This document shows positions 573 to 31,440 of a stretch of 64,000 bases of DNA, piece after piece. Positions within the stretch are counted from its first letter, which is position 1. Each line of letters opens with the position of its first letter. Made by a program: the position numbers and the translations under genes. Below the pieces are notes generated by a model, which did not search any database, had not been told where the DNA came from, and saw only the letters and a list, made by a program, of their open reading frames with translations. The DNA comes from Lachnospiraceae bacterium. Lineage in GTDB: Bacteria > Bacillota > Clostridia > Lachnospirales > Lachnospiraceae. The stretch lies in assembly GCA_036652815.1 (NCBI GenBank), contig JAVVVE010000006.1:11405-75404 (forward strand), written 5' to 3'.

Positions 573-1349
573 TTAATATCCTTTTTTTTGACCACCGTCT
601 ACTACAACTGTATTTCCAGTCATAAAAGAAGCTCTTTCTGAGGCTAGAAATACGATCATATCTGCAATTTCTTCCGGCTTTCCAAAACGTTTCATCGGAA
701 CATTCTGTTCAATATAACTCTTTGTGCCAACTTCATCCGCCAAGAGAAGTTCTTCCCACCTACCTGTTGGATAAATAATATTACCCGGGACTACTGCGTT
801 GACTCGAATACCTTGTTCTGCATAGTCTATCGCCATATATTTCGTTAAGGTCAAAATGGCATTCTTAGCTGCTGCGTAAGCATATGGTGCACTTATCTTC
901 TCACAAGCTGCTAATGATGAAAGTAACACAATGCTACTTCGTTGCTGTTCCATTAAAATATCCAGAAATATTTGAATCAGTTTTACCGCACTATACAGAT
1001 TTATATCAATCAGTCGTGCCCATTCCTCCATATCTAATCTATTCTCTGAGATAGGTTTTCCACTACCAAGATTAGGAATTAGAATATCTACTTTTCCAAA
1101 ACGTGATATGATTTGCTGTTTTGCTTGCTCAATATCACATGTTTTCGTCATATCACCGCATACTACAAATACATTATCTTGACCATAGCATGCACTTAAA
1201 TGAGTATGTGTTGCTATAAGTCTCTCTTGATTTCTTCCATTTATAATTACTTTCGCGCCTTCTGCTAAGAAGCTCTTTGCCGTAGCATATCCGATTCCCT
1301 TAGTTGACGCTGTAATAAAAACTATTTTATCTTGAATTTCCAGATTCAT
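573..1349 (-). CDS. Short-chain dehydrogenase/reductase (SDR) family oxidoreductase
   Basis: 258 aa. Has an N-terminal Rossmann motif (ITASTKGIGYA) and the catalytic YxxxK (YAAAK). Confidence 0.9.
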   Translation of the reverse strand: MNLEIQDKIVFITASTKGIGYATAKSFLAEGAKVIINGRNQERLIATHTHLSACYGQDNVFVVCGDMTKTCDIEQAKQQIISRFGKVDILIPNLGSGKPISENRLDMEEWARLIDINLYSAVKLIQIFLDILMEQQRSSIVLLSSLAACEKISAPYAYAAAKNAILTLTKYMAIDYAEQGIRVNAVVPGNIIYPTGRWEELLLADEVGTKSYIEQNVPMKRFGKPEEIADMIVFLASERASFMTGNTVVVDGGQKKGY

Positions 1350-1421: not shown

Positions 1422-2264
1422 TCATGATAAATATTGAAGTACAAATTGTTTCTGTTCTCTAATATTTTCTTCTTCCCGACCGTCTTCTCCTCGTGCTGCC
1501 TGTAAAATAATACTACCTTTATACTCTATTTGTTTTAAACTCGCAAAAACTTCCTTCATATCTGCGCTGCCTGTTCCTAAGGGTACCGATGTACCACCAT
1601 AAATTCGATCCTTAATATGTACATTGTAAACATATTGGTTGAGTGAAAGGAGTTCTTCTCTATGCCGATATCCCAATCCCGAACTGTTTCCACTATCATA
1701 ATTGGCTACTACATTTTTTCTATCAATTTTATCTAAAAAATTTTTAAAAACAGCCGGGGGGAAATCTGTTTCTAATCCCAGCATAATATGATATGTCTGT
1801 GCAATTATTGACATATGTTGAATAAATTCAATCATTTTTTTTTGTTCCAGTTCTGTTTTTACAGATGAATTATCTACTAAAGGAATTTCAATTAAATGTG
1901 CCTTGATTTGATGAGCTGCTTCTATAATCGTTGTGAGAATTTGAACATTTTCATCATATACCTTCTTTTCTTTCTCTGGCTTTTCTTTATAAAAAGGTCT
2001 TCTCATAAAATAGTCAAAGCAAACAGAATGAATCGTTACCCCAGTTTGTTTTACAACCTCCACAATACGTTTACGCATATTAGAAGTCCAAAGTGGATTT
2101 TCCTCATAGTTTTCCCAGTCAAAAATCCATTCTATCTCATCTAATCCTAAATTTTTTGCCAAATAAAACTCATTTTCCCAATTATCAAATGGAAAAAATT
2201 GAATCTCTCTACCTTTTCTTGGTGTTAATCGTCCCTGCATAATTCCTATACTATGCTGGTTCAT
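1422..2264 (-). CDS. Xylose-isomerase-like TIM-barrel protein (sugar phosphate isomerase/epimerase family)
   Basis: 280 aa. Overall resemblance to AP-endonuclease-2/xylose-isomerase-like TIM-barrel sugar isomerases, in a sugar-biosynthesis context. This is a family-level call only. Confidence 0.7.
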   Translation of the reverse strand: MNQHSIGIMQGRLTPRKGREIQFFPFDNWENEFYLAKNLGLDEIEWIFDWENYEENPLWTSNMRKRIVEVVKQTGVTIHSVCFDYFMRRPFYKEKPEKEKKVYDENVQILTTIIEAAHQIKAHLIEIPLVDNSSVKTELEQKKMIEFIQHMSIIAQTYHIMLGLETDFPPAVFKNFLDKIDRKNVVANYDSGNSSGLGYRHREELLSLNQYVYNVHIKDRIYGGTSVPLGTGSADMKEVFASLKQIEYKGSIILQAARGEDGREEENIREQKQFVLQYLS

Positions 2265-2318: not shown

Positions 2319-2747
2319 TTATAATGTCTCCACCAATTCTATAAAATTTCCCTCAGGATCTTTACAAAAGCAAACTTTTGCATAACCGTTGGGAGAAACA
2401 AGTGGTTTTGAAATGAATTTAATTCCCATTTTTTTTAATCTGCTATACTCATGATCAATATTTAATACCGAAACTGCAATGTGATAACTTCCCTGTTCCC
2501 AAACAGAAGTTTCATCTTTTATTTTTGATTCCATATCGCATACTTTTAAAAGTTCAATCATCGTTCCATTATCCGCTTCCAATTTATATAGTTCGATTTT
2601 CGCATTATTTAGACCTAGAATAGTGGCAATATAATCACTGCTTTCTATTTCATGAATTTTCTCTTTCATTCCCAATACAGCACTGTAGAACTCTTTCATT
2701 AACTCTAAATCACTGACATATATTCCCGTATGTCTAATTGCAATCAT
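2319..2747 (-). CDS. VOC (glyoxalase/bleomycin-resistance/dioxygenase) family protein
   Basis: 142 aa. Has paired beta-alpha-beta-beta-beta modules with HTGIYVSDLE...FY and HIAVSV...DPEGNFIEL signatures typical of VOC proteins. Confidence 0.8.
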   Translation of the reverse strand: MIAIRHTGIYVSDLELMKEFYSAVLGMKEKIHEIESSDYIATILGLNNAKIELYKLEADNGTMIELLKVCDMESKIKDETSVWEQGSYHIAVSVLNIDHEYSRLKKMGIKFISKPLVSPNGYAKVCFCKDPEGNFIELVETL

Positions 2748-2762: not shown

Positions 2763-4157
2763 TTAATTATTTTCTGTCACAATTTCCTGCATCGCTTCAA
2801 TGAGAACATCCATGCCTTCCGCTAATGCTTCCTCTGGGATTGTTAGTGGCGGTCCTACTTTAAGCGTTCCTGTCATCGTCCGAATAGACATGAGTCCTTT
2901 TTCAAAAGCTCGCTCTATTACCCTATCTACTAATTCAATATCCAGCTCTAATGTGCCCGGTTTTACAACAATTGCTGCAAAAGCCATACCCATACCATGG
3001 ATTGCCTGTATTCTGTCTGGAAATCTCGCTTGCATTTCTTGAAATTTTGAACGTAAAATATGTTCTTTACTTTTAGAGGCTTCTACCAAATGGTGCTCTT
3101 CAAGAAAATGCAAATTAGCCAATGCTGCTGCACAAGGTAAAGGACTTCCTCCATGTGTACTATTTAAAGATCCATCAACATCAATAATATCAGCCCGGCT
3201 CAATACGGCTGATAATGGTAACGATCCGCTAATTGCTTTACCACAACAAATAATATCTACGTCCACATCATAATATTCATATCCAAATAATTTACCGGTT
3301 CTCCCAAATCCCGCCTGTACTTCATCAGATACCAGCAGTGCATTGTGTTCAGTCAAAAACTTGCGTAAAGCCTTAATATACCCAATGGGATAAAAAAGTG
3401 CTGCCCACCCCTGGTATGGTTCAAAGATTGCTCCTGTAATGGTATCTAAGTCAACCCCCGATGCTTCTAACTGTGTAATATCTCTCTCGAAAAGTTTTCT
3501 GCCTGCCTCTTCATCATAAATCTGATCCATACTCTCAAATGCATTGGTTGGACAACACAGATGATAAATAGAAGGATCCATAGTTCCGATCCAGCTCTGA
3601 GAAGCCGGCTTCCCTGCCATTGTTTGTGCACCTAATGTTTTCCCATGAAAAGCTCCCTCAAATGCAATCATTCCTACTTTGTCTGGTCTTTGTTTTTTTC
3701 CATGCATACGGCAAAGTTTCAATGCACATTCTGTTGTTTCTGCACCAGTAGTTAACAGAAAAGCTTTATCCATAGGGCTAGGTGCCATTTTCACCAACTG
3801 TTCTGCTAATAGTGAACGAATTTCCAAAGAATAATAGTAGCTGTTAAGCATGGGCTTATCAAGCATTTCCTGCAATGCTTGAATGATAGCTTCATTGCCA
3901 TGACCAGTGTTTGTCACAAAGATGCCCGATGAAAAATCTATCCATATATTACCCCATTTATCAAATATCTGATAATCAACTGCTCTATCCCATACGGCAT
4001 AAAGTTGATTGTTCATAGACCAAGGTTCAAATCGAATAGAACGCTCTATAATTTCCAGACTTTCCGGAACCGGAAGTTTTGTCACTATTTTGCGATTTTC
4101 CGTTTCTACCAAAGGAACTTGATGTGGTACTTTGTTAAACATATATTCCGTTGTCAT
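2763..4157 (-). CDS. Class III PLP-dependent aminotransferase
   Basis: 464 aa. Contains the SDEVQAGFGRTGKLF motif and a downstream CCGKAISG lysine, typical of the class III (acetylornithine/GABA/GSA type) aminotransferases. Confidence 0.9.
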   Translation of the reverse strand: MTTEYMFNKVPHQVPLVETENRKIVTKLPVPESLEIIERSIRFEPWSMNNQLYAVWDRAVDYQIFDKWGNIWIDFSSGIFVTNTGHGNEAIIQALQEMLDKPMLNSYYYSLEIRSLLAEQLVKMAPSPMDKAFLLTTGAETTECALKLCRMHGKKQRPDKVGMIAFEGAFHGKTLGAQTMAGKPASQSWIGTMDPSIYHLCCPTNAFESMDQIYDEEAGRKLFERDITQLEASGVDLDTITGAIFEPYQGWAALFYPIGYIKALRKFLTEHNALLVSDEVQAGFGRTGKLFGYEYYDVDVDIICCGKAISGSLPLSAVLSRADIIDVDGSLNSTHGGSPLPCAAALANLHFLEEHHLVEASKSKEHILRSKFQEMQARFPDRIQAIHGMGMAFAAIVVKPGTLELDIELVDRVIERAFEKGLMSIRTMTGTLKVGPPLTIPEEALAEGMDVLIEAMQEIVTENN

Positions 4158-4193: not shown

Positions 4194-4946
4194 TTAGTCT
4201 AACTTAGTTAATACATCATATATCCAAGAACCCTGTTGTTTAATTTTATATTCAAGATATGAAAAATCTTCTATGGTATCTACTTCATAGCAGCAGGGAG
4301 ATTCAAAAGCAATCATCCTATCTCCATGCAATAATTGTTGTTCTATAATAAACTGACTTTTTAGCACATCCACATATCCATCCGGAATATAGACGTTGGG
4401 AAAACCTTGTCTGCCTTCATTGGCTTCATCTAGCGTTATTTTCTCTGAAAGTGCTGTGAAATATTCATTTTCGTTCTTTAGGAACCACTTGTAAGGAGAC
4501 TCTGATGCTAAGTGTGCTGATCGTAAGGATGTAGCTTCCTCCCGTTTCATGATAGTTGAAATTGCCGTATCTACAATTTCTACTTCACGAAGCGGTGTGG
4601 TAGGGCGTAAATGAATCAAATATTCCGGCACACTTCCTTCGTTATCCATAAACCAATGTAATGCATGATTAATAAATTCTATATCACCCGAACAATCCTC
4701 TGCATACTTTTTAGGTCGTAAAAACGGAACCTCCGCTCCATATTTCCGTGCAATCTCAGCTATCTCTTCTGAGTCTGTAGAAACAATCACTCGATCTATC
4801 TGTTGCGAATACCTAGCCAATATAATCGAATATGCAATTAACGGATATCCTTGCAATAATTTAATATTTTTCTGTGGAACACCTTTTGATCCAACTCGTG
4901 CGGGAATAATTGCCGTTCGATTTCCCTGATCTATTTGAACTGTCAT
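4194..4946 (-). CDS. Acylneuraminate-type cytidylyltransferase (CMP-ulosonic acid synthetase family)
   Basis: 250 aa. N-terminal IIPARVGSKGVPQKNI motif characteristic of CMP-NeuAc/CMP-Pse/CMP-Leg synthetases. It overlaps the upstream gene by 4 nt (4943-4946). Confidence 0.85.
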   Translation of the reverse strand: MTVQIDQGNRTAIIPARVGSKGVPQKNIKLLQGYPLIAYSIILARYSQQIDRVIVSTDSEEIAEIARKYGAEVPFLRPKKYAEDCSGDIEFINHALHWFMDNEGSVPEYLIHLRPTTPLREVEIVDTAISTIMKREEATSLRSAHLASESPYKWFLKNENEYFTALSEKITLDEANEGRQGFPNVYIPDGYVDVLKSQFIIEQQLLHGDRMIAFESPCCYEVDTIEDFSYLEYKIKQQGSWIYDVLTKLD

Positions 4947-6007
4947 CTTTCATTCCTCTTATACATCTCGTGTTCTACACATTCACAAATAATATGCCCA
5001 ATCATAATATGCATCTCTTGTATTCTTGGTGTATTTAAGGATGGAACCGATATTACAATATCTGCTTGTTGTGTCATAACACAATTGATATCTCCACCAA
5101 TCATAGCAACTGTTTTCATTTTTTTATCTCGTGCCGCCTTGATTGCTTCTACAATATTTTTAGATGTTCCACTTGTCGAGATAGCAATAAGGACATCTTT
5201 TGCTTTTCCTTTTGCCTCTACTTGTCTTGCAAATACTCTATCAAATGCATAATCATTCCCTATTGCTGTCAAGCACGAGGTATTAACTGTTAATGCTTCT
5301 GCGTTCAATGCCGGTCTGTCAAAATAGAAACGGCTAACTAATTCTGTGGCAAGGTGTTGTGCATCTGCCGCACTACCTCCATTTCCACAGAAAAGCACTT
5401 GTCCGCCTTCTTGAAAAGTAGTATACATTAATTCGATGACTTTCTGTATCGCGTGTTGTAATGTAATATCCATTCTCACTCGGGCTATTAATTGATTATG
5501 TTCCATAAGCGAGTGCGTGAGCTTAGTATGGACTTGTGTGATTCCATCATTATATTTTTCTATCATGTGGATGCACTCTGCCAAGCAGCCATTTCCACCT
5601 TCTGTGGATAAAATAACATCTGCCACTGATTTAACATCTGCTATAGCATCTGCCGGGCATAAACTAAGTCCAACATATTGCATTGCTTCTATATCATATT
5701 TTCCATCTCCTATATAGCAGATAGATTCCGGTGTTATCTCTAATTGATGTGCTAACTTTTCAAGCATTTGCTTCTTAGTCTTGCATGCATCGTACCAGTA
5801 ATCCGGTTCAAGTCTCTCATGAATATATTCTGTGAATGTATTCTTTTCTCCGGTAATAATCCCAAACATTATTTGATGCTTTCTTATCTGCGCAATCGCA
5901 TCAAGATCTTTTAATGAAATAGTTTTTTGCTGTTCTTCTCCTTTTGCAATATATATCTTACCATCCGTAAGCACTCCATCAATATCAGCTACTATAAGCT
6001 TAATCAT
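4943..6007 (-). CDS. Fusion protein: KdsC-type HAD-IIIA ulosonate-phosphate phosphatase (N-terminal) and GmhA-type SIS sugar-phosphate isomerase (C-terminal)
   Basis: 354 aa. The N-terminal half has DIDGVLTDG...IITGEK...GDGKYD (KdsC/KDN-9-P phosphatase type HAD). The C-terminal half has FCGNGGSAADAQHLATEL...ISTSGTSKN, the canonical phosphoheptose isomerase/DiaA-type SIS signature. Confidence 0.8.
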   Translation of the reverse strand: MIKLIVADIDGVLTDGKIYIAKGEEQQKTISLKDLDAIAQIRKHQIMFGIITGEKNTFTEYIHERLEPDYWYDACKTKKQMLEKLAHQLEITPESICYIGDGKYDIEAMQYVGLSLCPADAIADVKSVADVILSTEGGNGCLAECIHMIEKYNDGITQVHTKLTHSLMEHNQLIARVRMDITLQHAIQKVIELMYTTFQEGGQVLFCGNGGSAADAQHLATELVSRFYFDRPALNAEALTVNTSCLTAIGNDYAFDRVFARQVEAKGKAKDVLIAISTSGTSKNIVEAIKAARDKKMKTVAMIGGDINCVMTQQADIVISVPSLNTPRIQEMHIMIGHIICECVEHEMYKRNER

Positions 6008-6013
6008 CGTGTT

Positions 6014-6841
6014 TTATCCTCTCAGTTTTGCTTTTACAGCTTTTTCTGCTTCCGATAATGTCTTCTCACCATTGCCAAGAATAGAGGAAACCGCTCTAAT
6101 ATCTTTTACCAAGCGCTGTAAATCATCTACCTCTAACGATGCTGCCTGATCCGAACCATACATAGTTCTATCTAGTGTGATATGACGTTCTATGGAGGTT
6201 GCTCCCAAGACTGTTGCCGCTACTGATACTAATCTTCCAGTTTCATGTCCACTATAACCTATATCACATTGATAACGTTCCCTTAGTTTTGCTATAAGCA
6301 TTAAGTTCGCATCTTCATTTTTCATAGGATATGTACTATTGCAATGCATTAATTCAAAAGAGCACTTGTATTTTTTAAAAATTGCCACAGCATTATCAAT
6401 TTCCTCATAATTACTCATTCCTGTTGCTATAAAAGTATGTTTACCTTCTTTTGCCACTTCTTCTAATAATTCTCTATTTGTTAACATAGCCGAGGCTATT
6501 TTATTATATGGCAAATCATATTGTTGTAAAAACTTCTGTGCCTCAATATCCCATGCAGACGCAAACCATACGATCTTTTTTTCTTTACAGTATGCATCAA
6601 TCATATCATATTCTGCTTTTCCAAATTCCAAACCTTCTTTTTGAGCACGTTGTGTTGTCCCCCATGGGCTTTCACGATATCCTTCTAAATATTCTTTTGT
6701 ATACACCTTATCAATCGTTCTTTTTTGAAATTTAACAGCATCGCAATCACAGATTACCGCCCAATCAATTAGTTGTTTGACTAATTCCATATCTCCATTA
6801 TGGTTAATTCCTACTTCCGCAATAATAAATGGTTTTTTCAT
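6014..6841 (-). CDS. NeuB-family PEP-condensing (ulosonic acid / ulosonate-phosphate) synthase lacking the C-terminal SAF domain
   Basis: 275 aa. Has the IIAEVGINHNGD, MHCNSTYP and GYSGHETG motifs of the NeuB TIM barrel. The protein ends right after the barrel, so there is no SAF/antifreeze-like domain. Confidence 0.85.
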   Translation of the reverse strand: MKKPFIIAEVGINHNGDMELVKQLIDWAVICDCDAVKFQKRTIDKVYTKEYLEGYRESPWGTTQRAQKEGLEFGKAEYDMIDAYCKEKKIVWFASAWDIEAQKFLQQYDLPYNKIASAMLTNRELLEEVAKEGKHTFIATGMSNYEEIDNAVAIFKKYKCSFELMHCNSTYPMKNEDANLMLIAKLRERYQCDIGYSGHETGRLVSVAATVLGATSIERHITLDRTMYGSDQAASLEVDDLQRLVKDIRAVSSILGNGEKTLSEAEKAVKAKLRG

Positions 6842-8086: not shown

Positions 8087-8121
8087 TTTTTCACCTATCT
8101 TCGTTATTATTTCGATGAACT

Positions 8122-8691
8122 TTATTTTTCTGTAATAGCAAGTGCATTAACTAATAAATGCCATATAATCCCTTGCCATCCTTCTGCATGTGGTGTGATT
8201 CTTTCATCGTTTATTACCGGGATCAAAATACATGCATCTGCATTTTTACCCACATAACCACCATCACGTGACACAAGTCCAATAATTTTAGATCCTTTTT
8301 CTGTCGCATATTTTAATGCTTTTACAATATTTTGTGAAGTATGATCACTTCCTCCACCAACCGATAATATTAAGATAACATCCTGACTATTAAGTCTAGA
8401 TACTCTCAACCATTCTACAAAAGTAGTATCCCAGCCCTCATCATTTACTCTTGCTGTTAGCTCAGATATATTATCCGTAGGTGCATAAGCCTCAATTCCT
8501 GCTATTTTCCTAAAATCATTAACTGCATGAGACGCATTGGCTGCACTGCCTCCAACCCCCAGAATAAATAATCTGCCGTTATTTTTTTTAAGCGCAGCCA
8601 ATATTTCGATGCTTTTTTCGATTTTATCTTTTTCAATGGTTTTAGCTATCTGAATCGTCTCCAAAAGATATTGATTAATATAATTTTCCAT
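8122..8691 (-). CDS. SIS-domain sugar-phosphate isomerase (GmhA/LpcA-like)
   Basis: 189 aa. Contains FILGVGGSAANASHAVNDF ... LSVGGGS SIS motifs. It is adjacent to the heptose kinase and the nucleotidyltransferase/phosphatase genes. Confidence 0.7.
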   Translation of the reverse strand: MENYINQYLLETIQIAKTIEKDKIEKSIEILAALKKNNGRLFILGVGGSAANASHAVNDFRKIAGIEAYAPTDNISELTARVNDEGWDTTFVEWLRVSRLNSQDVILILSVGGGSDHTSQNIVKALKYATEKGSKIIGLVSRDGGYVGKNADACILIPVINDERITPHAEGWQGIIWHLLVNALAITEK

Positions 8692-8711
8692 ATGAATTTT
8701 CCCTTCTCATT

Positions 8712-10010
8712 TTATAAGCTTCTGGCAAAGTCTAATAAATTATTAACTATTCTATTTGGTCTGTAATCTTGCAATTGTTTGCACATATCACATTTTAATG
8801 TTCCTATCAATACAGTATTTAAACCTGCTGCTTTTCCAGCTAATATATCAGTATATGAATCTCCAACCATATAGGAGGACTCCCACTGAATATTATACCT
8901 CTCTTTTGCCATATATAATAGTCCCGGTTTTGGTTTTCGACAAGTACACTCTTTAATTAAAAAATGCTCTTTTGTATATGTGTTTTCCTTATCATAATGC
9001 GGGCACATATATACCTCATCTATTTTTATACCTGATTCTTCTATTTCACTCATCAGCTTTTTGTTAATATCATATAATGTAGCTAAGGATGTTTTCCCTT
9101 TAGCTGCAGCCGGCTGATTCGTTACTATAAAAATATAATAATCTAATCTTTTAATGATTTTCAATGCTTCAATGACTTGATCCATGATAACTACTTCTTC
9201 TGTTTTTAAAGGAGAGTCAAATTGCTCTATATCATCATTAAAAACGATTTCATTAATTACACCATCGCGATCCAAGAAAATGGCCGGATGACTTTCAAAA
9301 TAGCGTTTTTTTGCATATTTATCAAATTCAAGCAAAGAGCTTGGGGAACCTATTTCATAAAATCTCTTTATAACGATTTGATTTTCCAACTGTTTATCTA
9401 AAGATAGTTTTTTTTGAATCTCTGAAATATCAAATTTTATTCCTTGTGCATATGATAAAAATATTTCTTTTTCATAGATACCAATTCCGTAATCAATATA
9501 TTCCATTTCCTTTACAGGATTTTGCTTATCATATAAGATTATTTCACCATCTTGTAACCAAACATTGCTTGTATCAAGCTGATTATTGTTTTTAAATATT
9601 GTCATCAGTGCTCTTTTTTTACTTCTGGTATAGCGATACACTGTTTCTTTATAATCAATATCCATAAACGAATCTGCATATAGGAGCATAAATTTTTCTT
9701 CTAAATATGAAAATGCATTTCTGACTGCACCACCTGTTCCCAATAAATCTTTTCCATCATTACAATATTGAATTGTTACACCTAACTTTTCTCCCGTTTT
9801 ATAATATTCTTGTATTTTTTCACCTTGGTAGCCTAATAAAAACAAAAATTTTCTGAAACCGCTTTGATACATTAATTTCAATTGATAGTCAAAAAAAGGA
9901 ATTCCTTGAATCTTTACCATTGCTTTAGGTTCAGCCTCTGTATATTCTTGTAAACGGGTTCCTAGGCCTCCCATAAGCACCACAACTTGAAAATTTGCTA
10001 AATCCATCAT
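8712..10010 (-). CDS. Bifunctional sugar-1-phosphate nucleotidyltransferase (HddC-like) / D,D-heptose-1,7-bisphosphate phosphatase (GmhB-like)
   Basis: 432 aa. The N-terminus has LMGGLGTRL (GxGTRL nucleotidyltransferase). The C-terminus has FLDRDGVIN, VTNQP, a CPH...CTCRKPKPG zinc loop and GDSYTDILAG, the GmhB HAD signature. Confidence 0.8.
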   Translation of the reverse strand: MMDLANFQVVVLMGGLGTRLQEYTEAEPKAMVKIQGIPFFDYQLKLMYQSGFRKFLFLLGYQGEKIQEYYKTGEKLGVTIQYCNDGKDLLGTGGAVRNAFSYLEEKFMLLYADSFMDIDYKETVYRYTRSKKRALMTIFKNNNQLDTSNVWLQDGEIILYDKQNPVKEMEYIDYGIGIYEKEIFLSYAQGIKFDISEIQKKLSLDKQLENQIVIKRFYEIGSPSSLLEFDKYAKKRYFESHPAIFLDRDGVINEIVFNDDIEQFDSPLKTEEVVIMDQVIEALKIIKRLDYYIFIVTNQPAAAKGKTSLATLYDINKKLMSEIEESGIKIDEVYMCPHYDKENTYTKEHFLIKECTCRKPKPGLLYMAKERYNIQWESSYMVGDSYTDILAGKAAGLNTVLIGTLKCDMCKQLQDYRPNRIVNNLLDFARSL

Positions 10011-10981
10011 AAGGTTTTTGTTCCTTCCTTTTCAAATCTAAATCGTACCTCTAGCATTTTTGTTTTTTTCATAGCTGCTCGCAATTGCACCTTGTCTTTT
10101 GCATAGAACATAAGAAATCCGCCACCACCGGCTCCAATCATTTTTCCTCCCAATGCTCCGTTTTTAAGTGCAAATTCATACCATTCATTAATTAAAGAAT
10201 TACTCATTCCTGCAGAACGCTTTTTTTTATATTCCCAATGTGTATTCATGATATCTGCAAAATCATCTAAGTTTCCCTTTTCTAACGCTATTTTACTTTC
10301 AAAGCCTAACTCTTTAACATAATTCAAATTCTGAATCATCTTTTTATTATGATCCTTAGTTTTCCTATCTTGTTCATCTAAAATTATCCCTGCAGCTCTT
10401 GAAAATCCGGTAAAATACAATACTAAATTATCCTCCAGGTTATAATATGTCTCTTGTGTAATATTAAGAGGTTTGATATCCACATAACCATCTTTGGAAA
10501 ATGTCATGGTTTTAATGCCACCAAAAGATGCTATATATTGATCTTGTTTTCCGATGGGTTCCTGTAATCTATTCATTTCAATATTACAAGCCTCTTCTGC
10601 TAATTCTCTTTTATTAACAACACTTTCTTGCATTGTATGCAGGCCCAGCAATAATGCCGTTGTAAAACTACTAGACGAACCCAATCCAGTTCCAGATGGT
10701 ATATCTGCCATCGAACAAATCTCTATGCCCTTATCGCAAACATTTACCATGCTAAGAGCCTCTCTTATGATTGGATGCTTTATTTCTGCTATTTCTTTTA
10801 CTTTCTCAAATTGAGAATATTTCAAAATTATTTCTTTGGTAAATGTCTGATGAATTGTAATATATACATATCGATCAATGGCTGCAGAAATTAGAAATCC
10901 TCCATTTTCTTCATAATAGGAAGGTAGGTCTGTTCCTCCCCCTCCTAACGATATTCTAAGTGGGCTTCTAGTAATAATCAT
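10007..10981 (-). CDS. hddA: GHMP-family sugar kinase (D-glycero-alpha-D-manno-heptose-7-phosphate kinase-like)
   Basis: 324 aa. Has GHMP motif II (IPSGTGLGSSSSF) and a C-terminal GAGGGGF motif. It shows a 4-nt overlap with the downstream fusion gene, in a heptose pathway context. Confidence 0.75.
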   Translation of the reverse strand: MIITRSPLRISLGGGGTDLPSYYEENGGFLISAAIDRYVYITIHQTFTKEIILKYSQFEKVKEIAEIKHPIIREALSMVNVCDKGIEICSMADIPSGTGLGSSSSFTTALLLGLHTMQESVVNKRELAEEACNIEMNRLQEPIGKQDQYIASFGGIKTMTFSKDGYVDIKPLNITQETYYNLEDNLVLYFTGFSRAAGIILDEQDRKTKDHNKKMIQNLNYVKELGFESKIALEKGNLDDFADIMNTHWEYKKKRSAGMSNSLINEWYEFALKNGALGGKMIGAGGGGFLMFYAKDKVQLRAAMKKTKMLEVRFRFEKEGTKTL

Positions 10982-11017
10982 AATTCACTCTCCTCATATA
11001 ACACAGCTTAGTTCCTA

Positions 11018-11734
11018 TCACAAAATAGAGAATCCAATAGCTAAACTATCTCGTGCAAACATTTGTACAGTTTCCAATGAAAATTGTTCGAGATCCTTAC
11101 CTAATGATGGGATTTTTCGTAAAATATCATTTGTGACCGTAATGATATCTGCTCCGGAATTATTTGCCTGAATTATATTATACACCTCACGGCAGCTTGC
11201 CCACAGCACTTCTGTCCCCGGTTTCTTTTTACAAATTGTTACAACCTCTTGTACTATAGGCATAGCATCTATTCCTGTATCCATGATTCTGCCCGCAAAT
11301 ATAGAAAGAATGTTTTTTGTATTTGGTGCAAGCACTTCTATAATTTGTTTTGCTTGTTCAAAAGTAAAAATAGCCGTGATATTAAGTTGTAATCCTTGAT
11401 CAGATAATTTTCTTACCAATGGTACACTGGTTTCTCCTTTTGAATTAGTAATAGGTATCTTTATATAGACATTTGATCCTAATTTTGAAAGTACTTTCGC
11501 TTCTTTCTCCATAATGTCAAAGTCATCAGAAAAAACCTCAAAAGAAATAGGTAAATCTGTGATTTTATCCGTAATCTCTTTTGCAAATAATAAATATTCT
11601 TTTATTCCGGCTTTTTTCATAAGCGTTGGATTGGTTGTGAATCCTTTAATATATGGCTTTTGATACTCTTGCATCATTTCAGCTATTTCTGCTCCATCTG
11701 CAAATATTTTTATTTTTAATTCTTCTATTTTCAT
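11018..11734 (-). CDS. Transaldolase / fructose-6-phosphate aldolase family protein
   Basis: 238 aa. Has the GFTTNPTLM motif and a VYIKIP Schiff-base lysine region typical of short (TalC/FSA-type) transaldolases. Confidence 0.85.
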   Translation of the reverse strand: MKIEELKIKIFADGAEIAEMMQEYQKPYIKGFTTNPTLMKKAGIKEYLLFAKEITDKITDLPISFEVFSDDFDIMEKEAKVLSKLGSNVYIKIPITNSKGETSVPLVRKLSDQGLQLNITAIFTFEQAKQIIEVLAPNTKNILSIFAGRIMDTGIDAMPIVQEVVTICKKKPGTEVLWASCREVYNIIQANNSGADIITVTNDILRKIPSLGKDLEQFSLETVQMFARDSLAIGFSIL

Positions 11735-24844: not shown

Positions 24845-24856
24845 AACGAGCTCCTT

Positions 24857-26811: not shown

Positions 26812-28311
26812 CTACCACTTCTTAAGAAATGTCTTACGTTCCATCGGATCCATTTTGCTAATCTGCTCATCCATATAATAAGAATCGCTCTTCATATGCT
26901 GTGTGGATACTTCTTCAAAGATAGCACCATTGACCGATGAAAAAGAATGATATTCGCCACGCAATACAGTCTGCATATCACCCGGTTTTAAGGTCTTGTC
27001 TTCTTGTCCATCCATCTGTATCTCTAAGTCTCCATAGAGTACCTGAAAAGTCTCTTCTTTAATCTTATGTGCATGAGAAGGGTGTTTTTGTCCCGGCAGT
27101 ACGATGATATATTTCTTACAGTACTCTCTATTAATAATATTGATAATAATAGCACCATGCTGTCTAAAATGTTTCATCCCATAATGATGAGACAGCTCCA
27201 CTTCAAAGTTATCTCCGAGTGCAATGCCTGCCTCGTAGAGCATGCCCTTAGCGTCATGTACTGCAGTACGCACGATACCGACTCCGGATACTTTAGGCTG
27301 TTCCACGATCTTCTCATTAAGAGCGTAGTCTTTGGAAGCCACCATGCCATCTTTGAATCCACCACTGGTGAGCTGCTTTTCTTGACAAGGCATCGCATAG
27401 AACACATCTGCTTCCGTCATAGTCTCTCCCGCCTGAATAGGATGTTTGGCATAGACTCCTCGCATCAGAGAGGTCAGGGAATCTATCTCTGCCTGCGTTA
27501 CATACTTGTCATTTGGTTTACGTACCTGGCAGATCTCTTTTGCCAATAACGCGGATTTTACCCAGTTCTCTGCCTGCTCCGGATTCATCGAGTACGCATT
27601 TAATCGGATGGTGTCAGTTGGCAGTCCTACATGGCGCTCCAGTATCTGTGCGCCCTTCGCGATCGCTAACATCGGCACCACCGTATTATCAGGATCCTCA
27701 TGTCCCGAATAGCCAATGGTAACATCCCGATATCTACGATTCATCCTATCGATGAAGTCCAATTGTAAGCCTTCTAACGGTGCCGGATATTCTGCGATGC
27801 AATGTAAGAAAGCAAACTCACAGCCCTTATGTGTAAAGAAATTATATATCTTATCAATCTCAGCTAAGGTCTTTCCACCCGTAGAGATAATCAAAGGTTG
27901 CTTAGAAGCTGCCGCTTTCATCAAAAGCGGCCAGTCGAGTGCACTGCAGCTGGCGATCTTAATGATATCCAATCCCTGATCCATACACCACTCTACCCCG
28001 GTCTCATCAAAGGGGGTACTCATGGTAAGCATACCTTCCGCGCGTACCGCATCCACTAATCGAGATAGTTGGTCGTAACTCAACCTGGTACTTAAGAATC
28101 TCGGTATATGTTTTACATCTTCTCTGTCTTTAAAGTCCGGATGAATAAAAGTATCCAGATCCCGATATTGTAATTTCACTGCAGCTTTAATATTGTATTG
28201 ACGGGCTATCCTGCCCATGGCTTTGATAATATCGATACCATGCTCTACGCTACCCTGATGACTATTCGCCATCTCAAATATAAATAGATTCTCCAGTACA
28301 TTACTTTTCAT
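26812..28311 (-). CDS. NeuB-family nonulosonic acid synthase with a SAF domain and an extra C-terminal cupin domain
   Basis: NeuB barrel motifs (FEMANSHQGS, LHCIAEYPAP, GYSGHEDP) are followed by a SAF-like segment (VYAKHPIQAGETMTEADV). After that comes a roughly 140-aa cupin (LPGQKHPSHAHKIKEETFQVLYGDL...GEYHSF). The start is placed at the ATG at 28309-28311 with an AAGGGGG RBS. Confidence 0.8.
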   Translation of the reverse strand: MKSNVLENLFIFEMANSHQGSVEHGIDIIKAMGRIARQYNIKAAVKLQYRDLDTFIHPDFKDREDVKHIPRFLSTRLSYDQLSRLVDAVRAEGMLTMSTPFDETGVEWCMDQGLDIIKIASCSALDWPLLMKAAASKQPLIISTGGKTLAEIDKIYNFFTHKGCEFAFLHCIAEYPAPLEGLQLDFIDRMNRRYRDVTIGYSGHEDPDNTVVPMLAIAKGAQILERHVGLPTDTIRLNAYSMNPEQAENWVKSALLAKEICQVRKPNDKYVTQAEIDSLTSLMRGVYAKHPIQAGETMTEADVFYAMPCQEKQLTSGGFKDGMVASKDYALNEKIVEQPKVSGVGIVRTAVHDAKGMLYEAGIALGDNFEVELSHHYGMKHFRQHGAIIINIINREYCKKYIIVLPGQKHPSHAHKIKEETFQVLYGDLEIQMDGQEDKTLKPGDMQTVLRGEYHSFSSVNGAIFEEVSTQHMKSDSYYMDEQISKMDPMERKTFLKKW

Positions 28312-30202
28312 GGAATACCCCCTTATGAAATACTCTGTCCAATTTATCATCTTTTAGGTCTGTCAATATCGTGTCTATTGTGCTTTGAATCTGAGTCATA
28401 TATGTTTTTCCCATCGTGCAAGCTGTTATCAGTTCTTTTTTCTCTTCTCCCTCTACTTGATAGATGTCCTGCAGCAACTCTGTCGTGCTGTTCTGCATGA
28501 GATGCTGCACATAATGGTAGATGGTATCTTCTTCAATCTCTGCCGTCAGTGCATTGACTTGTTTCATGATCCTTTTCATGTCTCCTGATGCATATCTGTT
28601 TTGTAAGGTTAAGGTAAGCATCTGATCATAGGCTCTGCTCCCACGCTTGGCGAGCGATAAGATATGTTCCAGTCTCTCTGGCATGTCATAGAGATAGGTC
28701 TCAAATCGTTGCTTCTGTTCTGCATTCAGTAAATCAGGTGTGTCTCTTATAATCGCAGCGATATCTACTGTTTGCCTGCACTCTCTTGCAATGGCATCCC
28801 GTAGTGTCATCATCTCGGTGCCGTGTATCATCGCACCGCCCTCTGTTGCATCGATGACGTGCAATCCCCGATAGTTTTTTATCTCATATTCAAACCAATC
28901 CAGATAAATCTTAAATTCCAAACTGGAGGCGATAGGTTGTCCATCTATTCCCTCGACTTCTATCGTATTCTGACTTTCGATAGCGAGATTTTGTTCCCCG
29001 CGTACTGTTTCTTTGGCATGCGTGCGATGGTCGGTATAAGCCAGATCCTGTCCCACCAGGATAATGGTAGTGAATCCCAAGAGCTTTGCAATCGAAAAAG
29101 CTTCATTCGCTACGGAACCTCCCGACGATGTGATCGGCAGCAGCACCTCTTCTTTGGATAAAAATTCTTGTACATGTGGATTCATATCCTGTACAAAAAA
29201 CAAATTATCCGGATGAGCTTCTAATAATTGATATCTACTGGATAAATTACAAAAGAGAGGGATTTCCCGAATCCTTTCCTCCGTAAAATGTGCCAAATCT
29301 TTTTCTCCATCAATCGAAACAAAAGCATCCGGCACTATATGATGTGCCAGTAGTACTCTTAATGCCGAATCCGCTGCAATCAAAAAGCTTTTTCCGGCTG
29401 CTTTTTTTAATTCCTCTATGTTATGATCCAGGGATGGTCCCGCCGCTACGATGATCGCAGGCAGGGTATGTGGTAATCTCTGCCACAGCTCCTGTATCGA
29501 TTTACTATAAGCAAAGCTCCTATAATTCATTATCGTATTCAGGTAATAGCTCGCACCGAAACGTCCCATCACATCCTGGCTGGCGGTGATGGTCTGACAG
29601 ATCACTTCTAATTTTTTATAGAACGCATCCCATTCCTCATGGAAAAGGACCGGATAATTCAGATAGCTTTCGAGAATCAGTTCCTTGATATCCCTAATAT
29701 CTAATTCTCTCGCCAACATGTCTTCATAGCTGAGTTCTCCCTCTTCTGCCACGACAGGTACGACACGCTCATCTGCTAAGATCGCACTGCAGTCAAACTC
29801 TTCCAATACCTTTAGAAATAGAGTCAGCGACGGCTCATAAAGCAGGATCCTGACTTCTTTTTCGCAGTTCTCCAGTAGTGTCCTAACATACATCCCATTT
29901 CCAAACCCAAACAACACGATCTTATTCTTATAGTTCGTCATCTTTAGTCCGCGAAACCAGGTGTCCAGGAGATAATCGGAATCATAAAGAGAATCTAACT
30001 GATACTGCTGCGTCCCCTTATCTACATACAATACTTTTCGCTCTTCTATCAGTTCCACTCCGGGTATGAGCTCTTGTGTCTCGCTTGGTTGCTCTAATGC
30101 ATGCAGCAGATTATGATATAAGATCGGATCTTTTTGTTGCAGTACCTTTAGGTTAGTCTCCAGATGACTGTCTATATTCACATCCCTGTTCTTCTGTGTC
30201 AT
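28301..30202 (-). CDS. maf: Motility-associated factor (Maf, DUF115/MAF_flag10) flagellin glycosyltransferase
   Basis: 633 aa. The central AIIVAAGPSLDHNIEELKKAAGKSFLIAADSALRVLLAHHIVPDAFVSIDGE segment is typical of DUF115 Maf proteins. It is the second gene downstream of fliC. Confidence 0.85.
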   Translation of the reverse strand: MTQKNRDVNIDSHLETNLKVLQQKDPILYHNLLHALEQPSETQELIPGVELIEERKVLYVDKGTQQYQLDSLYDSDYLLDTWFRGLKMTNYKNKIVLFGFGNGMYVRTLLENCEKEVRILLYEPSLTLFLKVLEEFDCSAILADERVVPVVAEEGELSYEDMLARELDIRDIKELILESYLNYPVLFHEEWDAFYKKLEVICQTITASQDVMGRFGASYYLNTIMNYRSFAYSKSIQELWQRLPHTLPAIIVAAGPSLDHNIEELKKAAGKSFLIAADSALRVLLAHHIVPDAFVSIDGEKDLAHFTEERIREIPLFCNLSSRYQLLEAHPDNLFFVQDMNPHVQEFLSKEEVLLPITSSGGSVANEAFSIAKLLGFTTIILVGQDLAYTDHRTHAKETVRGEQNLAIESQNTIEVEGIDGQPIASSLEFKIYLDWFEYEIKNYRGLHVIDATEGGAMIHGTEMMTLRDAIARECRQTVDIAAIIRDTPDLLNAEQKQRFETYLYDMPERLEHILSLAKRGSRAYDQMLTLTLQNRYASGDMKRIMKQVNALTAEIEEDTIYHYVQHLMQNSTTELLQDIYQVEGEEKKELITACTMGKTYMTQIQSTIDTILTDLKDDKLDRVFHKGVFHEK

Positions 30203-30624: not shown

Positions 30625-31440
30625 TTATCCCAGTAATGACAATACGCCTTGATTTGACTGATTTGCCTGTGCTAACATAGACTGACCTGCCTGTCCGAGA
30701 ATATTATTCTTGCTGTATTCAACCATCGTCTTAGCCATATCCGTATCACGAATCGCTGCTTCTGCTGATTGTGTGTTCTCAACAACGTTATCTAAGTTCT
30801 TAACTGTGTATTCAAGTCTGTTCTGAATAGCACCCAGTGCAGAACGCTGTTTGGATACTTGTGCAATAGCACTTGTAATCTTAGAGATAGCTGTTCTTGC
30901 AGTCGATACTTGAGTTAATGTAATAGAATTGATTCCGAGACCTGTTGCATTCATATTCTTGATACTGATTCTGATTCTTTGTGCAGACTTGTTGGCAGCA
31001 CCAACCTGAATGTCATGGTTGAATTTACCGGACAATAGTCCCAATGTGTTGAACTGTGTGGACTGCTGTACTCTGTTAATCTCACTAACCAGTGCCTTTA
31101 CTTCGGTATTGATAGCTCTTCTATCTGCTGTGGTATTCGTTCCGGTAGAAGATTTGACTGCTAATTCATTCATACGCTGTAACATGTTATGTACTTCTGT
31201 CAAAGCACCCTCTGCTGTCTGTACGACTGCGATACCATCTTGAGCATTAGCGGAAGCTTGTGTTAAGCCTCTGATCTGGCTTCTCATCTTCTCACTGATG
31301 GTTAATCCTGCTGCATCATCTGCTGCACGGTTAATCTTGTAACCTGAAGATAACTTCTCTGTTGTCTTAGCTTGTGCACTTGTTGTGATACCTAACTGTC
31401 TGTTAGCATTCATTGCTGTTAAATTGTGTTGTACTATCAT
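30625..31440 (-). CDS. fliC: Flagellin
   Basis: 271 aa. Has a canonical flagellin N-terminus (MIVQHNLTAMNANRQL...INRAADDAAGL) and C-terminus (ILGQAGQSMLAQANQSNQGVLSLLG), with a strong AAGGAGG RBS. Confidence 0.95.
   Translation of the reverse strand: MIVQHNLTAMNANRQLGITTSAQAKTTEKLSSGYKINRAADDAAGLTISEKMRSQIRGLTQASANAQDGIAVVQTAEGALTEVHNMLQRMNELAVKSSTGTNTTADRRAINTEVKALVSEINRVQQSTQFNTLGLLSGKFNHDIQVGAANKSAQRIRISIKNMNATGLGINSITLTQVSTARTAISKITSAIAQVSKQRSALGAIQNRLEYTVKNLDNVVENTQSAEAAIRDTDMAKTMVEYSKNNILGQAGQSMLAQANQSNQGVLSLLG

Follow-up and report, generated by a model that had tools for sequence, protein, structure and literature searches.

What does a bacterium make with a phosphatase that is covalently joined to a sugar-phosphate isomerase? 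The question is raised by an open reading frame in the 64,000 nucleotides of Lachnospiraceae DNA analysed here (the window). The initial annotation had read it as one polypeptide with a KdsC-type HAD domain and a SIS domain carrying the canonical GmhA signature. It had proposed a link between heptose and ulosonic-acid chemistry, in which the fusion opens a pathway and also performs its third step, while a NeuB-like synthase encoded upstream carries out the PEP condensation in between. The parts of the fusion are as follows.

4943..6007 (-): HAD-SIS fusion protein, 354 aa (open reading frame, domain searches, model, full-length conserved family)
5543..6007 (-): residues 1-155, HAD phosphatase domain (C0 type; KdsC/KDN-9-P phosphatase family)
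5441..5542 (-): residues 156-189, linker and N-terminal helices of the GmhA fold, poorly conserved
4943..5440 (-): GmhA-type SIS domain, residues 190-354 and stop

The fusion protein and its family

The reading frame starts with ATG, and all motifs quoted in the initial annotation were found: DIDGVLTDG (residues 8-16), GDGKYD (100-105), GNGGSAADAQHLATEL (208-223) and STSGTSKN (277-284). Pfam searches matched both domains, Hydrolase_3/HAD in the N-terminal half and SIS_2 in the C-terminal half (E 5.8e-29), so that the reading as a single 354-aa two-domain polypeptide held. An AlphaFold2 model of the fusion had a pLDDT of 91.6, with helices at residues 156-199. Mean identity within the family was 62% for the SIS part, 47% for the HAD part and 21% for residues 156-189.

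A database survey for the KdsC-SIS architecture, which had been suggested with the annotation, returned a 100% identical protein from a Lachnospiraceae MAG at NCBI and end-to-end coverage of the fusion in more than 120 further clusters (90% identity); thus, the fusion is real. Of the 150 best representatives clustered at 50% identity, 42 had the domain order HAD>SIS and 4 the reverse, SIS>HAD. Judged from these clusters and representatives, the sequence data indicate that the fusion is under selection. Besides Lachnospiraceae, distant phyla (Polyangiaceae) have this architecture too. An assembly or frameshift artefact was ruled out, since the full-length fused architecture is present in hundreds of independent assemblies. 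The literature gave no report of a KdsC-GmhA fusion. A genome scan with peptide patterns, taken mostly from the GmhA half, yielded standalone GmhAs, which shared about 50% identity with the SIS half, at 79 of 80 loci, and the fusion only at L001. A separate fusion of an SIS domain with a GmhB-type domain, P0331, was also observed.

The GmhA-type half

The SIS half marginally missed the cutoff of the NCBIfam model for gmhA, TIGR00441 (202.2 bits, E 4e-60; cutoff 209.45), and the other gmhA equivalog models gave 160-199 bits against cutoffs of 265-320. In a PDB sequence search, GmhA of B. pseudomallei matched residues 161-350 of the fusion (E 2e-51, 51% core identity). Comparison of the AlphaFold2 model by Foldseek with the GmhA structures 2x3y and 2xbl gave TM scores of 0.95-0.96 and rmsd values of 1.1-1.3 Å, and the alignment to the product-bound enzyme 2xbl contained only one single-residue gap. 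Residues H218, E222, Q330 and H338, as well as the phosphate loop STSGxS (S277-S282), were invariant or nearly so in 120 family members, and these GmhA residues are also kept across phyla. The four residues align with H64, E68, Q175 and H183 of the B. pseudomallei enzyme, which we take to be the Zn-binding and catalytic residues; PDB entries of the GmhA mutants H64Q and Q175E agree with these roles. The C-terminal domain is of the type named in the initial annotation. A non-enzymatic SIS protein of the DiaA kind was ruled out, since the catalytic residues are invariant.

Identity of the SIS half to authentic GmhAs was 45-57%, which is as close as authentic GmhAs are to one another; for the GmhAs of the ADP- and GDP-heptose pathways (2x3y, 2xbl, 1tk9, 2i22) it was about 51%, to the B. 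pseudomallei enzyme. No fusion-specific substitutions were detected, i.e., no alignment column had a fused consensus that was rare among standalone GmhAs. In a neighbour-joining tree of 165 SIS domains, which had no support values and was poorly resolved, the fused domains were interspersed with standalone GmhAs. By sequence, they would appear not to be one divergent subfamily.

The phosphatase half

The HAD half remained below the NCBIfam cutoffs for both related phosphatases, scoring 107.7 bits with the KDN-9-P phosphatase model NF058599 (cutoff 180) and 103.8 bits, narrowly too low, with the KdsC model TIGR01670 (cutoff 106.95). Its best matches in NCBIfam and in the PDB were to the KDN-9-P phosphatase of B. 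thetaiotaomicron, BT1713, which covered residues 2-149 of the fusion (E 5e-18). The AlphaFold2 model gave TM scores of 0.75-0.86 with YrbI/KdsC and BT1713. The HAD motif residues D8, D10, T14, K78, D101 and D105 were invariant in 120 family members; D8, D10, K78, D101 and D105 are kept across phyla too, as is E54.

E54 was likewise invariant in the 120 members, and position 65 was R or K in 112 of them. These positions align with E56 and K67 of BT1713, which were altered in the PDB variants 4hgq (E56A) and 4hgr (E56A/K67A), whereas KdsC has Arg at the position of E54. The two residues are said to be markers that separate KDN-9-P phosphatase from KdsC in specificity. The family and the motifs given in the initial annotation are intact; on account of this residue pair, however, the HAD half is better named KDN-9-P-phosphatase-like than KdsC-type. 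The pair is in keeping with a NeuB-type ulosonate phosphate, more than with Kdo-8-P, as the predicted substrate. Position 62, aligned with R64 of BT1713, is hydrophobic (F, I, L or V), and substrate binding is therefore predicted to be identical to that of neither known enzyme. Both halves of the fusion look catalytically competent, as predicted from their motif residues.

The likeness to a C9 phosphatase at two marker residues could equally mean a C9 product. The SIS half would then convert fructose-6-P to mannose-6-P, the NeuB would be a KDN-9-P synthase and the HAD half a KDN-9-P phosphatase, with CMP-KDN or an aminated or methylated derivative as the outcome. The database matches of the HAD half and the retention of both KdsC-distinguishing residues are in line with such a route, and textbook stereochemistry makes the conversion of sedoheptulose-7-P to heptose-7-P analogous to that of fructose-6-P to mannose-6-P. 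The SIS half points elsewhere: its core has no fusion-specific substitutions in comparison with authentic GmhAs, and with a single one-residue gap and an unchanged phosphate loop and Zn site, the distance that determines substrate length should be unchanged. We know of no GmhA that acts on fructose-6-P. Moreover, mannose-6-P is a housekeeping metabolite, normally supplied by PMI, so that an always-fused isomerase would be redundant; heptose-7-P is not a housekeeping metabolite in Gram-positive bacteria, which would account for the invariable presence of a dedicated isomerase. We consider the C9 route rather unlikely.

The KDN pathway of B. thetaiotaomicron (KDN-9-P synthase BT1714, phosphatase BT1713 with structures 3e81 and 4hgo, and a CMP-KDN synthetase) is nevertheless similar in several respects. 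It has a NeuB-family synthase for a phosphorylated manno-aldose (predicted here; BT1714 was likened by description), a phosphatase and CMP activation, and its phosphatase is a tetrameric C0-type HAD of the same family as the HAD half. It differs in being without a counterpart of the GmhA-type isomerase, which is here covalently fused to the phosphatase, as well as in R64 and in the NF058599 score; in addition, the synthase of the window has no SAF domain, and extra tailoring genes are conserved around it.

The short NeuB and the conserved cassette

The genes surrounding the fusion are the following.

6014..6841 (-): short NeuB-family PEP-condensing synthase (predicted), 275 aa, obligate partner of the fusion (Pfam NeuB)
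4194..4946 (-): CMP-ulosonate synthetase, CTP_transf_3, PseF/NeuA/KdsB-like (domain searches; in most cassettes)
2763..4157 (-): class III aminotransferase (domain searches)
2319..2747 (-): VOC/glyoxalase-fold protein, which goes with the class III aminotransferase variant (domain search)
1422..2264 (-): AP_endonuc_2, xylose-isomerase-like TIM barrel, sugar-phosphate 3-epimerase-like, near-core member
573..1349 (-): SDR oxidoreductase, near-core cassette member

The synthase is a TIM barrel in which Pfam found PF03102 NeuB alone (E 1e-70), without an SAF/AFP domain; its 120 closest relatives were all of 270-282 aa and likewise without SAF. Scores were below the equivalog cutoffs (NeuB_NnaB, 248.7 against 399.65; PseI, 193.7 against 340.25). 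The catalytic residues align with those of NmNeuB, and identity among Lachnospiraceae-type cassettes was 72-82%. The best PDB match was a short NeuB from Leptospira, 6ncs (290 aa), which also has no SAF domain. A published precedent is a NeuB-phosphatase fusion of Leptospira interrogans, which was taken as the sign of a phospho-sugar ("animal-like") route (PMC3438082). As in the window, a NulO synthase is tied to a phosphatase; in Leptospira, however, the phosphatase is fused to the synthase and not to an isomerase, a GmhA is missing, and the inferred substrate is ManNAc-6-P.

The stop codon of the NeuB gene lies 6 nt before the ATG of the fusion, with a ribosome-binding site GAGAGGA, and the stop codon of the fusion overlaps the start codon of the CMP-transferase gene (ATGA); the short gap and the overlap suggest translational coupling. 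SIS, NeuB, HAD and CTP_transf_3 are contained in one operon-like block (4194-6841), which recurs in most related loci. With either the fusion or NeuB as the starting point of the search, the short NeuB adjoined the fusion, or was within 4 genes of it, in 12 of 13 distinct neighbourhoods, among them a flagellar island of Polyangiaceae; the remaining one is truncated at the end of its contig. This synteny strongly backs the coupling with the upstream synthase that had been proposed. The usual companions were the CMP-transferase, AP_endonuc_2, SDR or GFO oxidoreductases, an aminotransferase (class IV or DegT instead of class III in other cassettes) and a methyltransferase. The reverse-order fusion locus L102 has the same partner genes, and its contig ends before any position for NeuB. 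A 409-aa neighbour protein had no recognised domain.

No conserved kinase was found in the related cassettes compared. Since the phosphatase is obligatory and a kinase is absent, the short NeuB would be expected to accept a phosphorylated aldose. The phosphate removed by the HAD half would have to come from a sugar phosphate of central metabolism, and the SIS half would be the point of entry. On these grounds of genomic context, it is quite probable that a single phospho-sugar ulosonate pathway employs both the fusion and the short NeuB. Our confidence is very high for the domain identities, the intactness of the catalytic residues, the conservation of the fusion and its conserved synteny with the short NeuB, which sequences and models show.

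The order of steps could be different. Fused domains often run successive reactions, and the characterised bacterial enzymes of the NeuB family (NeuB, PseI, LegI) use unphosphorylated sugars. The SIS half could thus make heptose-7-P and the HAD half release D-glycero-D-manno-heptose, which the NeuB would condense in unphosphorylated form, still giving a C10 acid; SDR, AP_endonuc_2 and the aminotransferase may tailor the free heptose before condensation, and the conserved aminotransferase and oxidoreductases could indeed act on it. This order is improbable: the HAD half falls in the KdsC/KDN-9-P phosphatase family, whose characterised enzymes use ulosonate phosphates as substrates, and it retains the counterparts of E56 and K67. 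Known heptose phosphatases are HADs of the GmhB type and not of the KdsC type, and a fusion of SIS with GmhB exists separately in P0331.

Another possibility concerns the substrate of the SIS half. AP_endonuc_2 and SDR could act before it and provide a non-standard ketose phosphate. The closest NCBIfam models of AP_endonuc_2 are L-ribulose-5-P 3-epimerases, and its conservation in the cassette, like that of an SDR or GFO oxidoreductase, nearly equals that of NeuB. A ketose phosphate made by AP_endonuc_2 and SDR/GFO, or else ribulose-5-P or octulose-8-P, would lead to an epimeric C10, a C8 or a C11 acid. LmbN, a relative of GmhA, reportedly acts on octulose-8-P (C8). We regard such substrates as improbable too, because at its conserved positions the SIS core does not differ from canonical GmhAs, no conserved transaldolase that could make octulose-8-P belongs to the cassette in the 25 related loci, and AP_endonuc_2 is absent near the NeuB-fusion pair at L081-L083 and L104.

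The adjacent heptose module

About 2 kb from the fusion, a module (8122..11734, (-)) lies outside the conserved cassette.

8122-8691 (-): divergent second SIS
8712-10010 (-): NTP-transferase and GmhB fusion
10007-10981 (-): HddA-like kinase
11018-11734 (-): transaldolase

The divergent second SIS protein is present as described, and so is the transaldolase, which had been put forward as able to supply sedoheptulose-7-P; like the rest of the module, they do not belong to the conserved unit but occur in this window only. HddA was found in 0 of 25 related loci, from which the GmhB/HddC module is likewise absent, whereas the short NeuB was present in 24 of the 25. The fused GmhA domain most probably serves the NeuB pathway and not GDP-heptose, since the heptose-activation genes HddA, GmhB and HddC are next to the fusion only in this window; supply of GDP-heptose as its role was rejected by the same counts. 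The extremely unlikely reading that the GmhA domain feeds this module, and that its link to a phosphatase has no mechanistic meaning, would draw on the complete set of heptose-activation genes and the transaldolase at 2 kb, together with the divergence of the module's SIS. The locus counts stand against it, as do the conservation of the HAD-SIS fusion across phyla, the existence of both domain orders and the fact that the module has an SIS protein of its own.

The fused SIS domain differs from the GmhAs of the nucleotide-heptose pathways in being joined to a phosphatase, and it stands beside HddA/HldE/GmhB/HddC only in this window; apparently it hands its product to a predicted PEP-condensing synthase and not to a kinase. 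The octose pathway of lincomycin (LmbR/LmbN/LmbP/LmbK/LmbO) illustrates that GmhA-type isomerases can feed higher-carbon sugars. Likened by activity, it has the same five functions as the adjacent module (transaldolase, SIS, GHMP kinase, GmhB, NTP-transferase). It contains neither PEP condensation nor an ulosonic acid, and thus relates to the neighbouring module and not to the fusion.

Proposed pathway and product

Our preferred scheme, which is tentative, assigns steps 1 and 3 of a dedicated CMP-ulosonic-acid pathway to the fusion and step 2 to the co-transcribed short NeuB. As predicted from its sequence, the fusion is a genuine bifunctional enzyme. In step 1, the GmhA-type SIS domain would draw a ketose phosphate, in all likelihood sedoheptulose-7-P, out of central metabolism and isomerise it to a manno-configured aldose phosphate, D-glycero-D-manno-heptose-7-P. 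The SAF-less NeuB would condense this with PEP to a 3-deoxy-2-ulosonate with a terminal phosphate (step 2), i.e., a ten-carbon homologue of KDN-9-P (C10 ulosonate-10-P), from which the KDN-9-P-phosphatase-like HAD domain would take off the phosphate (step 3). The downstream CTP_transf_3 enzyme would yield the CMP-sugar (step 4). SDR/GFO, AP_endonuc_2, aminotransferase and methyltransferase probably tailor the sugar by oxidation, amination and methylation (step 5), and in this window a Maf-type enzyme probably moves the product onto flagellin (step 6).

The sequence of isomerase, PEP condensation, HAD phosphatase and cytidylyltransferase is identical in its four-step logic to the Kdo pathway (KdsD, KdsA, KdsC, KdsB), and the HAD half is probably a member of the KdsC/YrbI family, with its TIGR01670 score narrowly under the cutoff. 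The components differ: KdsD is an SIS+CBS arabinose-5-P isomerase, whereas the isomerase here is of the GmhA (SIS_2) type; KdsA is DAHP-synthase-like and not a NeuB-type TIM barrel; KdsC has Arg where the HAD half has Glu; and the host is a Gram-positive bacterium, with a flagellin-glycan context.

The suspected link between heptose and ulosonic-acid chemistry gains weight from the absence of HddA in the related loci and from the lack of fusion-specific SIS substitutions. That sedoheptulose-7-P is the substrate and a C10 acid the product is something we infer, and with somewhat less assurance than the division of steps. It is possible, at this same guarded level, that the cassette of short NeuB and HAD-SIS fusion makes an undescribed C10 3-deoxy-2-ulosonic acid, displayed on flagellin or other surface glycans; such an acid would then probably be aminated and methylated. 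In the literature, no report of a GmhA feeding a NeuB and no C10 3-deoxy-ulosonic acid were found; the sole ten-carbon sugar encountered was bradyrhizose, which is unrelated.

Flagellin context and significance

In this window, the cassette belongs to an island for flagellin glycosylation that also contains a Maf gene.

28301..30202 (-): Maf/PseD-like flagellin ulosonic-acid glycosyltransferase, MptE-like, candidate user of the CMP-sugar
30625..31440 (-): flagellin, candidate glycan acceptor

A comparable flagellar arrangement was seen at the Polyangiaceae locus L103. The cassette is abundant in metagenome assemblies of Lachnospiraceae, with homologs of its members on over 100 contigs each, and occurs in Myxococcota as well. 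It is probable that these bacteria make an as yet undescribed acidic sugar, possibly with ten carbons, for flagella or the cell surface.

Sugars of the sialic-acid kind (Neu5Ac, KDN, Pse, Leg, Kdo) influence host recognition, phage attachment and flagellar function, and flagellins of commensals are major immune antigens in the gut. To our knowledge, all known sialic-acid-like sugars have 8 or 9 carbons. A C10 product, if true, would extend the ulosonic-acid family and mean that a whole class of "decu-losonic" sugars has been overlooked; the three-enzyme system could easily be cloned for proof, and an unknown epitope on commensal flagellins would be indicated. Even if the product should be KDN-like, a new family of bifunctional enzymes would be defined, its automatic naming as "SIS domain-containing protein" or "D-sedoheptulose 7-phosphate isomerase" would be corrected, and the SAF-less short NeuBs would be recognised as a distinct, phosphatase-dependent subfamily.

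Domain structure and conservation of the fusion protein

The initial annotation had described a single 354-aa polypeptide with two domains at 4943-6007 (minus strand), and this reading was confirmed: the ORF listing showed an ATG start and all of the motifs quoted. In Pfam, HAD models covered the N-terminal half and SIS_2 the C-terminal half. Among NCBIfam models, gmhA (TIGR00441) matched the C-terminal half with 202.2 bits, below its cutoff of 209.45, and the N-terminal half scored 107.7 bits with the KDN-9-P phosphatase model NF058599 and 103.8 bits with KdsC TIGR01670 (cutoff 106.95). A PDB sequence search aligned residues 161-350 with GmhA of Burkholderia pseudomallei (E 2e-51, one single-residue gap); for residues 2-149 the top match was BT1713, the KDN-9-P phosphatase of Bacteroides thetaiotaomicron, followed by KdsC/YrbI enzymes. 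An AlphaFold2 model, for which a cross-phylum alignment of 34 sequences served as input, reached a pLDDT of 91.6. Its SIS half superimposed on the GmhA structures 2x3y and 2xbl with a TM score of 0.95 and an rmsd of 1.1-1.3 Å, its HAD half on YrbI, KdsC and BT1713 with TM scores of 0.75-0.86; comparison of the model with the PDB yielded no chain spanning both halves.

In 120 family members the HAD motif residues D8, D10, T14, K78, D101 and D105, the SIS residues H218, E222, Q330 and H338, and the STSGxS phosphate loop of the SIS half were invariant or nearly so. The four SIS residues correspond to H64, E68, Q175 and H183, the Zn/catalytic residues of B. pseudomallei GmhA. All of these positions were kept likewise in the cross-phylum alignment A1, all 34 members of which matched the gmhA models as well as those for KdsC/KDN-9-P phosphatase. 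Identity across the family was lowest in the linker (21%), compared to 47% in the HAD half and 62% in the SIS half.

Occurrence of the fusion

A Lachnospiraceae MAG protein, entered at NCBI as "SIS domain-containing protein", has the identical sequence, and at least 120 clusters (90% identity) match over the full length with 48-65% identity. The initial annotation had proposed a survey of the KdsC-SIS architecture. When 1.84 billion representatives (50% identity) were searched exhaustively, 19,120 matches were obtained. Architectures were read for the best 150: in 42 the HAD domain precedes SIS (identity down to 27%), 4 are fusions in the reverse order, 77 are standalone proteins of GmhA size, and in 22 SIS is joined to something else. 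In full-text literature searches neither a KdsC-GmhA fusion nor a GmhA that supplies a NeuB enzyme was described, and no C10 3-deoxy-ulosonic acid came up. The fusion is a real, conserved and previously uncharacterised predicted bifunctional enzyme.

The reverse-order fusions of SIS to a KdsC-like HAD domain are the database homologs P0255, P0281, P0288 and P0347, together with 8001-9092 of the related locus L102; they fall in three places of the SIS neighbor-joining tree, which is weak. The partner genes in L102 are the same (CTP_transf_3, methyltransferase, AP_endonuc_2, GFO, SDR, DegT). P0331 represents a distinct type, SIS with a GmhB-type HAD.

Gene order and the conserved cassette

All genes from 573 to beyond 34 kb lie on the minus strand.

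Genes of the window in the direction of transcription (high to low coordinates, upstream first)
Upstream of flagellin, minus strand: FliD
30625-31440, minus strand: flagellin
28301-30202, minus strand: Maf/PseD-like protein with MptE domain
26812-28350, minus strand: NeuB-cupin fusion, 512 aa, directly downstream of the Maf gene
23780-26805, minus strand: CDP-glycerol glycerophosphotransferase, IspD/TarI-like cytidylyltransferase, epimerase/dehydratase-family reductase
After the cytidylyltransferase, minus strand: several glycosyltransferases and a DegT aminotransferase
Between the glycosyltransferase/DegT group and transaldolase, minus strand: pyruvyl transferase
8122-11734, minus strand: transaldolase, HddA-like kinase, HddC+GmhB fusion, divergent SIS
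6857-8086, minus strand: 409-aa protein, no Pfam or NCBIfam match, directly upstream of the short NeuB
6014-6841, minus strand: short NeuB
4943-6007, minus strand: HAD-SIS fusion
Downstream of the fusion, minus strand, in this order: CTP_transf_3, class III aminotransferase, VOC protein, AP_endonuc_2, SDR

Six nucleotides, following the short NeuB stop codon, precede the ATG of the fusion, which has the ribosome-binding site GAGAGGA; the ATG of the CMP-transferase gene overlaps the stop codon of the fusion.

The comparison took in the window, L001 and loci L081-L104, thirteen distinct neighbourhoods in all, seeded both with fusion homologs and with short-NeuB homologs. Whichever seed was used, the short NeuB was adjacent to the fusion or at most four genes away in 12 of them; in L102, the one other case, the contig breaks off. 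These NeuBs have 270-293 aa and match PF03102 only. In a tblastn matrix, 24 of the 25 loci carried the short NeuB, at 72-82% identity in those of Lachnospiraceae type and 47-50% in L103 and L104; AP_endonuc_2 and an SDR were present in most, and so was CTP_transf_3; the aminotransferase, usually present, varies in class by locus (class III, class IV, DegT). From the neighbourhood comparison and the matrix, the conserved unit is the short NeuB with HAD-SIS, usually accompanied by a CMP-transferase, an oxidoreductase, AP_endonuc_2, an aminotransferase and a methyltransferase.

The adjacent heptose module and transaldolase, which the initial annotation had brought into its reading, are peculiar to the window: the matrix showed HddA in 0 of 25 loci, and the GmhB/HddC module was likewise absent. 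That the fusion is incidental and serves GDP-heptose appears very improbable. The module shares five activities with the lincomycin octose pathway (LmbR/N/P/K/O), its transaldolase matches TIGR02134 with 352 bits, and its product could be GDP-octose instead of, or besides, GDP-heptose. Its divergent SIS has conservatively altered Zn ligands (E to D, Q to E) and SVGGGSDHTS in place of the phosphate loop.

Homologs of the 409-aa protein, 26-28% identical, occur in two other cassettes (L085, 1253-2488; L089, 19244-20449); this domain-less protein might be a glycosyltransferase or polymerase dedicated to the proposed new sugar. In L093-L098 (5967-7730) a 587-aa PF27859 protein, of a family named after Leptospira LIC12162, is encoded immediately upstream of the short NeuB, which hints at an uncharacterised component common to Lachnospiraceae cassettes and the Leptospira nonulosonic-acid locus.

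The partner synthase

At the positions where NmNeuB binds PEP and metal, the short NeuB keeps the aligned residues; its SAF domain is lacking. In NmNeuB the SAF domain supplies an arginine contacting the N-acetyl group. The nearest structure is that of a 290-aa short NeuB from Leptospira (6ncs). Across the same loci the identity of the synthase (72-82%) is far above that of its fused partner (45-65%) or of the CMP-transferase (30-72%), and these sequence identities suggest that the synthase is under unusually strong constraint. A NeuB-phosphatase fusion in Leptospira, read as a sign of a phospho-sugar route (PMC3438082), is a published precedent for the phospho-sugar logic proposed here. Formation of a C10 product via free heptose is given little credence.

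Substrate and product

The fusion and the SAF-less NeuB define a predicted phospho-sugar pathway in the style of Kdo/KDN, with GmhA as the isomerase. Several observations favour sedoheptulose-7-P as the substrate. Standalone GmhAs share 45-57% identity with the SIS half and are as near to it as to each other; fused domains are interspersed with standalone ones in the weak neighbor-joining tree; the alignment contained no column in which a fused consensus (≥80%) was rare (≤25%) in standalone GmhAs; and the phosphate loop and Zn site, which together fix substrate length, are unchanged. AP_endonuc_2 and the SDR could work ahead of the SIS domain in the pathway, which counts against sedoheptulose-7-P; some other ketose phosphate is a rather improbable substrate.

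Also in favour of sedoheptulose-7-P, the compared neighbourhoods showed no conserved kinase in the cassette, and therefore the phosphate must derive from a ketose phosphate of central metabolism. Heptose-7-P, unlike mannose-6-P, is presumably not otherwise available in these organisms, which would explain why a dedicated isomerase is obligatory. D-glycero-D-manno-heptose-7-P is manno-configured, as are the substrates of the NeuB family, and its condensation with PEP would give the C10 homologue of KDN-9-P. A C10 product through this phosphorylated route is tentatively proposed, with slightly less than even confidence. A C9, KDN-like product is less likely. In its favour, and against the C10 reading, E54 (invariant) and R/K65 (112 of 120) of the HAD half line up with E56 and K67 of BT1713, which is a C9 enzyme; against it, the position matching R64 of BT1713 is hydrophobic in the fusion family. 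As to transfer of the proposed C10 sugar, Maf enzymes are reported to take CMP-Neu5Ac and CMP-Kdo besides their native donors, so that a CMP-C10 donor would not be implausible.

The thiamine-diphosphate enzymes (acetolactate-synthase-like) which adjoin the fusion in L081-L083 (these without a nearby CMP-transferase), L084 and L091-L092 could decarboxylate the 2-keto acid or extend it with a two-carbon branch, and the final product may therefore vary between loci.

The glycosylation island

The region is a flagellin glycosylation island. The cytidylyltransferase, reductase and glycerophosphotransferase genes beside those of Maf and NeuB-cupin suggest polyol-phosphate decoration of the flagellin glycan. 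In the NeuB-cupin protein, the second NeuB-family member of the window, which scores 141 bits with NeuB and 131 bits with PseI, far under both cutoffs, a C-terminal Cupin_2/D-lyxose-isomerase-like domain joins a sugar isomerase to a PEP-condensing synthase, a logic parallel to that of the HAD-SIS and NeuB pair. Its reaction might start from an unphosphorylated ketose, which would be turned into a manno-aldose and then condensed.

When 1-24000 of the window is set against 24000-64000, the GC content of the glycosylation genes is 0.29-0.37, versus about 0.42-0.45 in the flagellar/housekeeping part and about 0.43 for the flagellar genes; a gene for an AAA_14/DUF4143 ATPase (22342-23640) is located at the GC boundary. 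The drop and the ATPase would fit a hypervariable glycan island that is exchanged horizontally. In L103, from a Polyangiaceae MAG, the cassette has two flagellins, FliD, FliS and a gene of Maf type as neighbours; most Lachnospiraceae loci resemble polysaccharide loci, and thus the glycan acceptor may vary among organisms.
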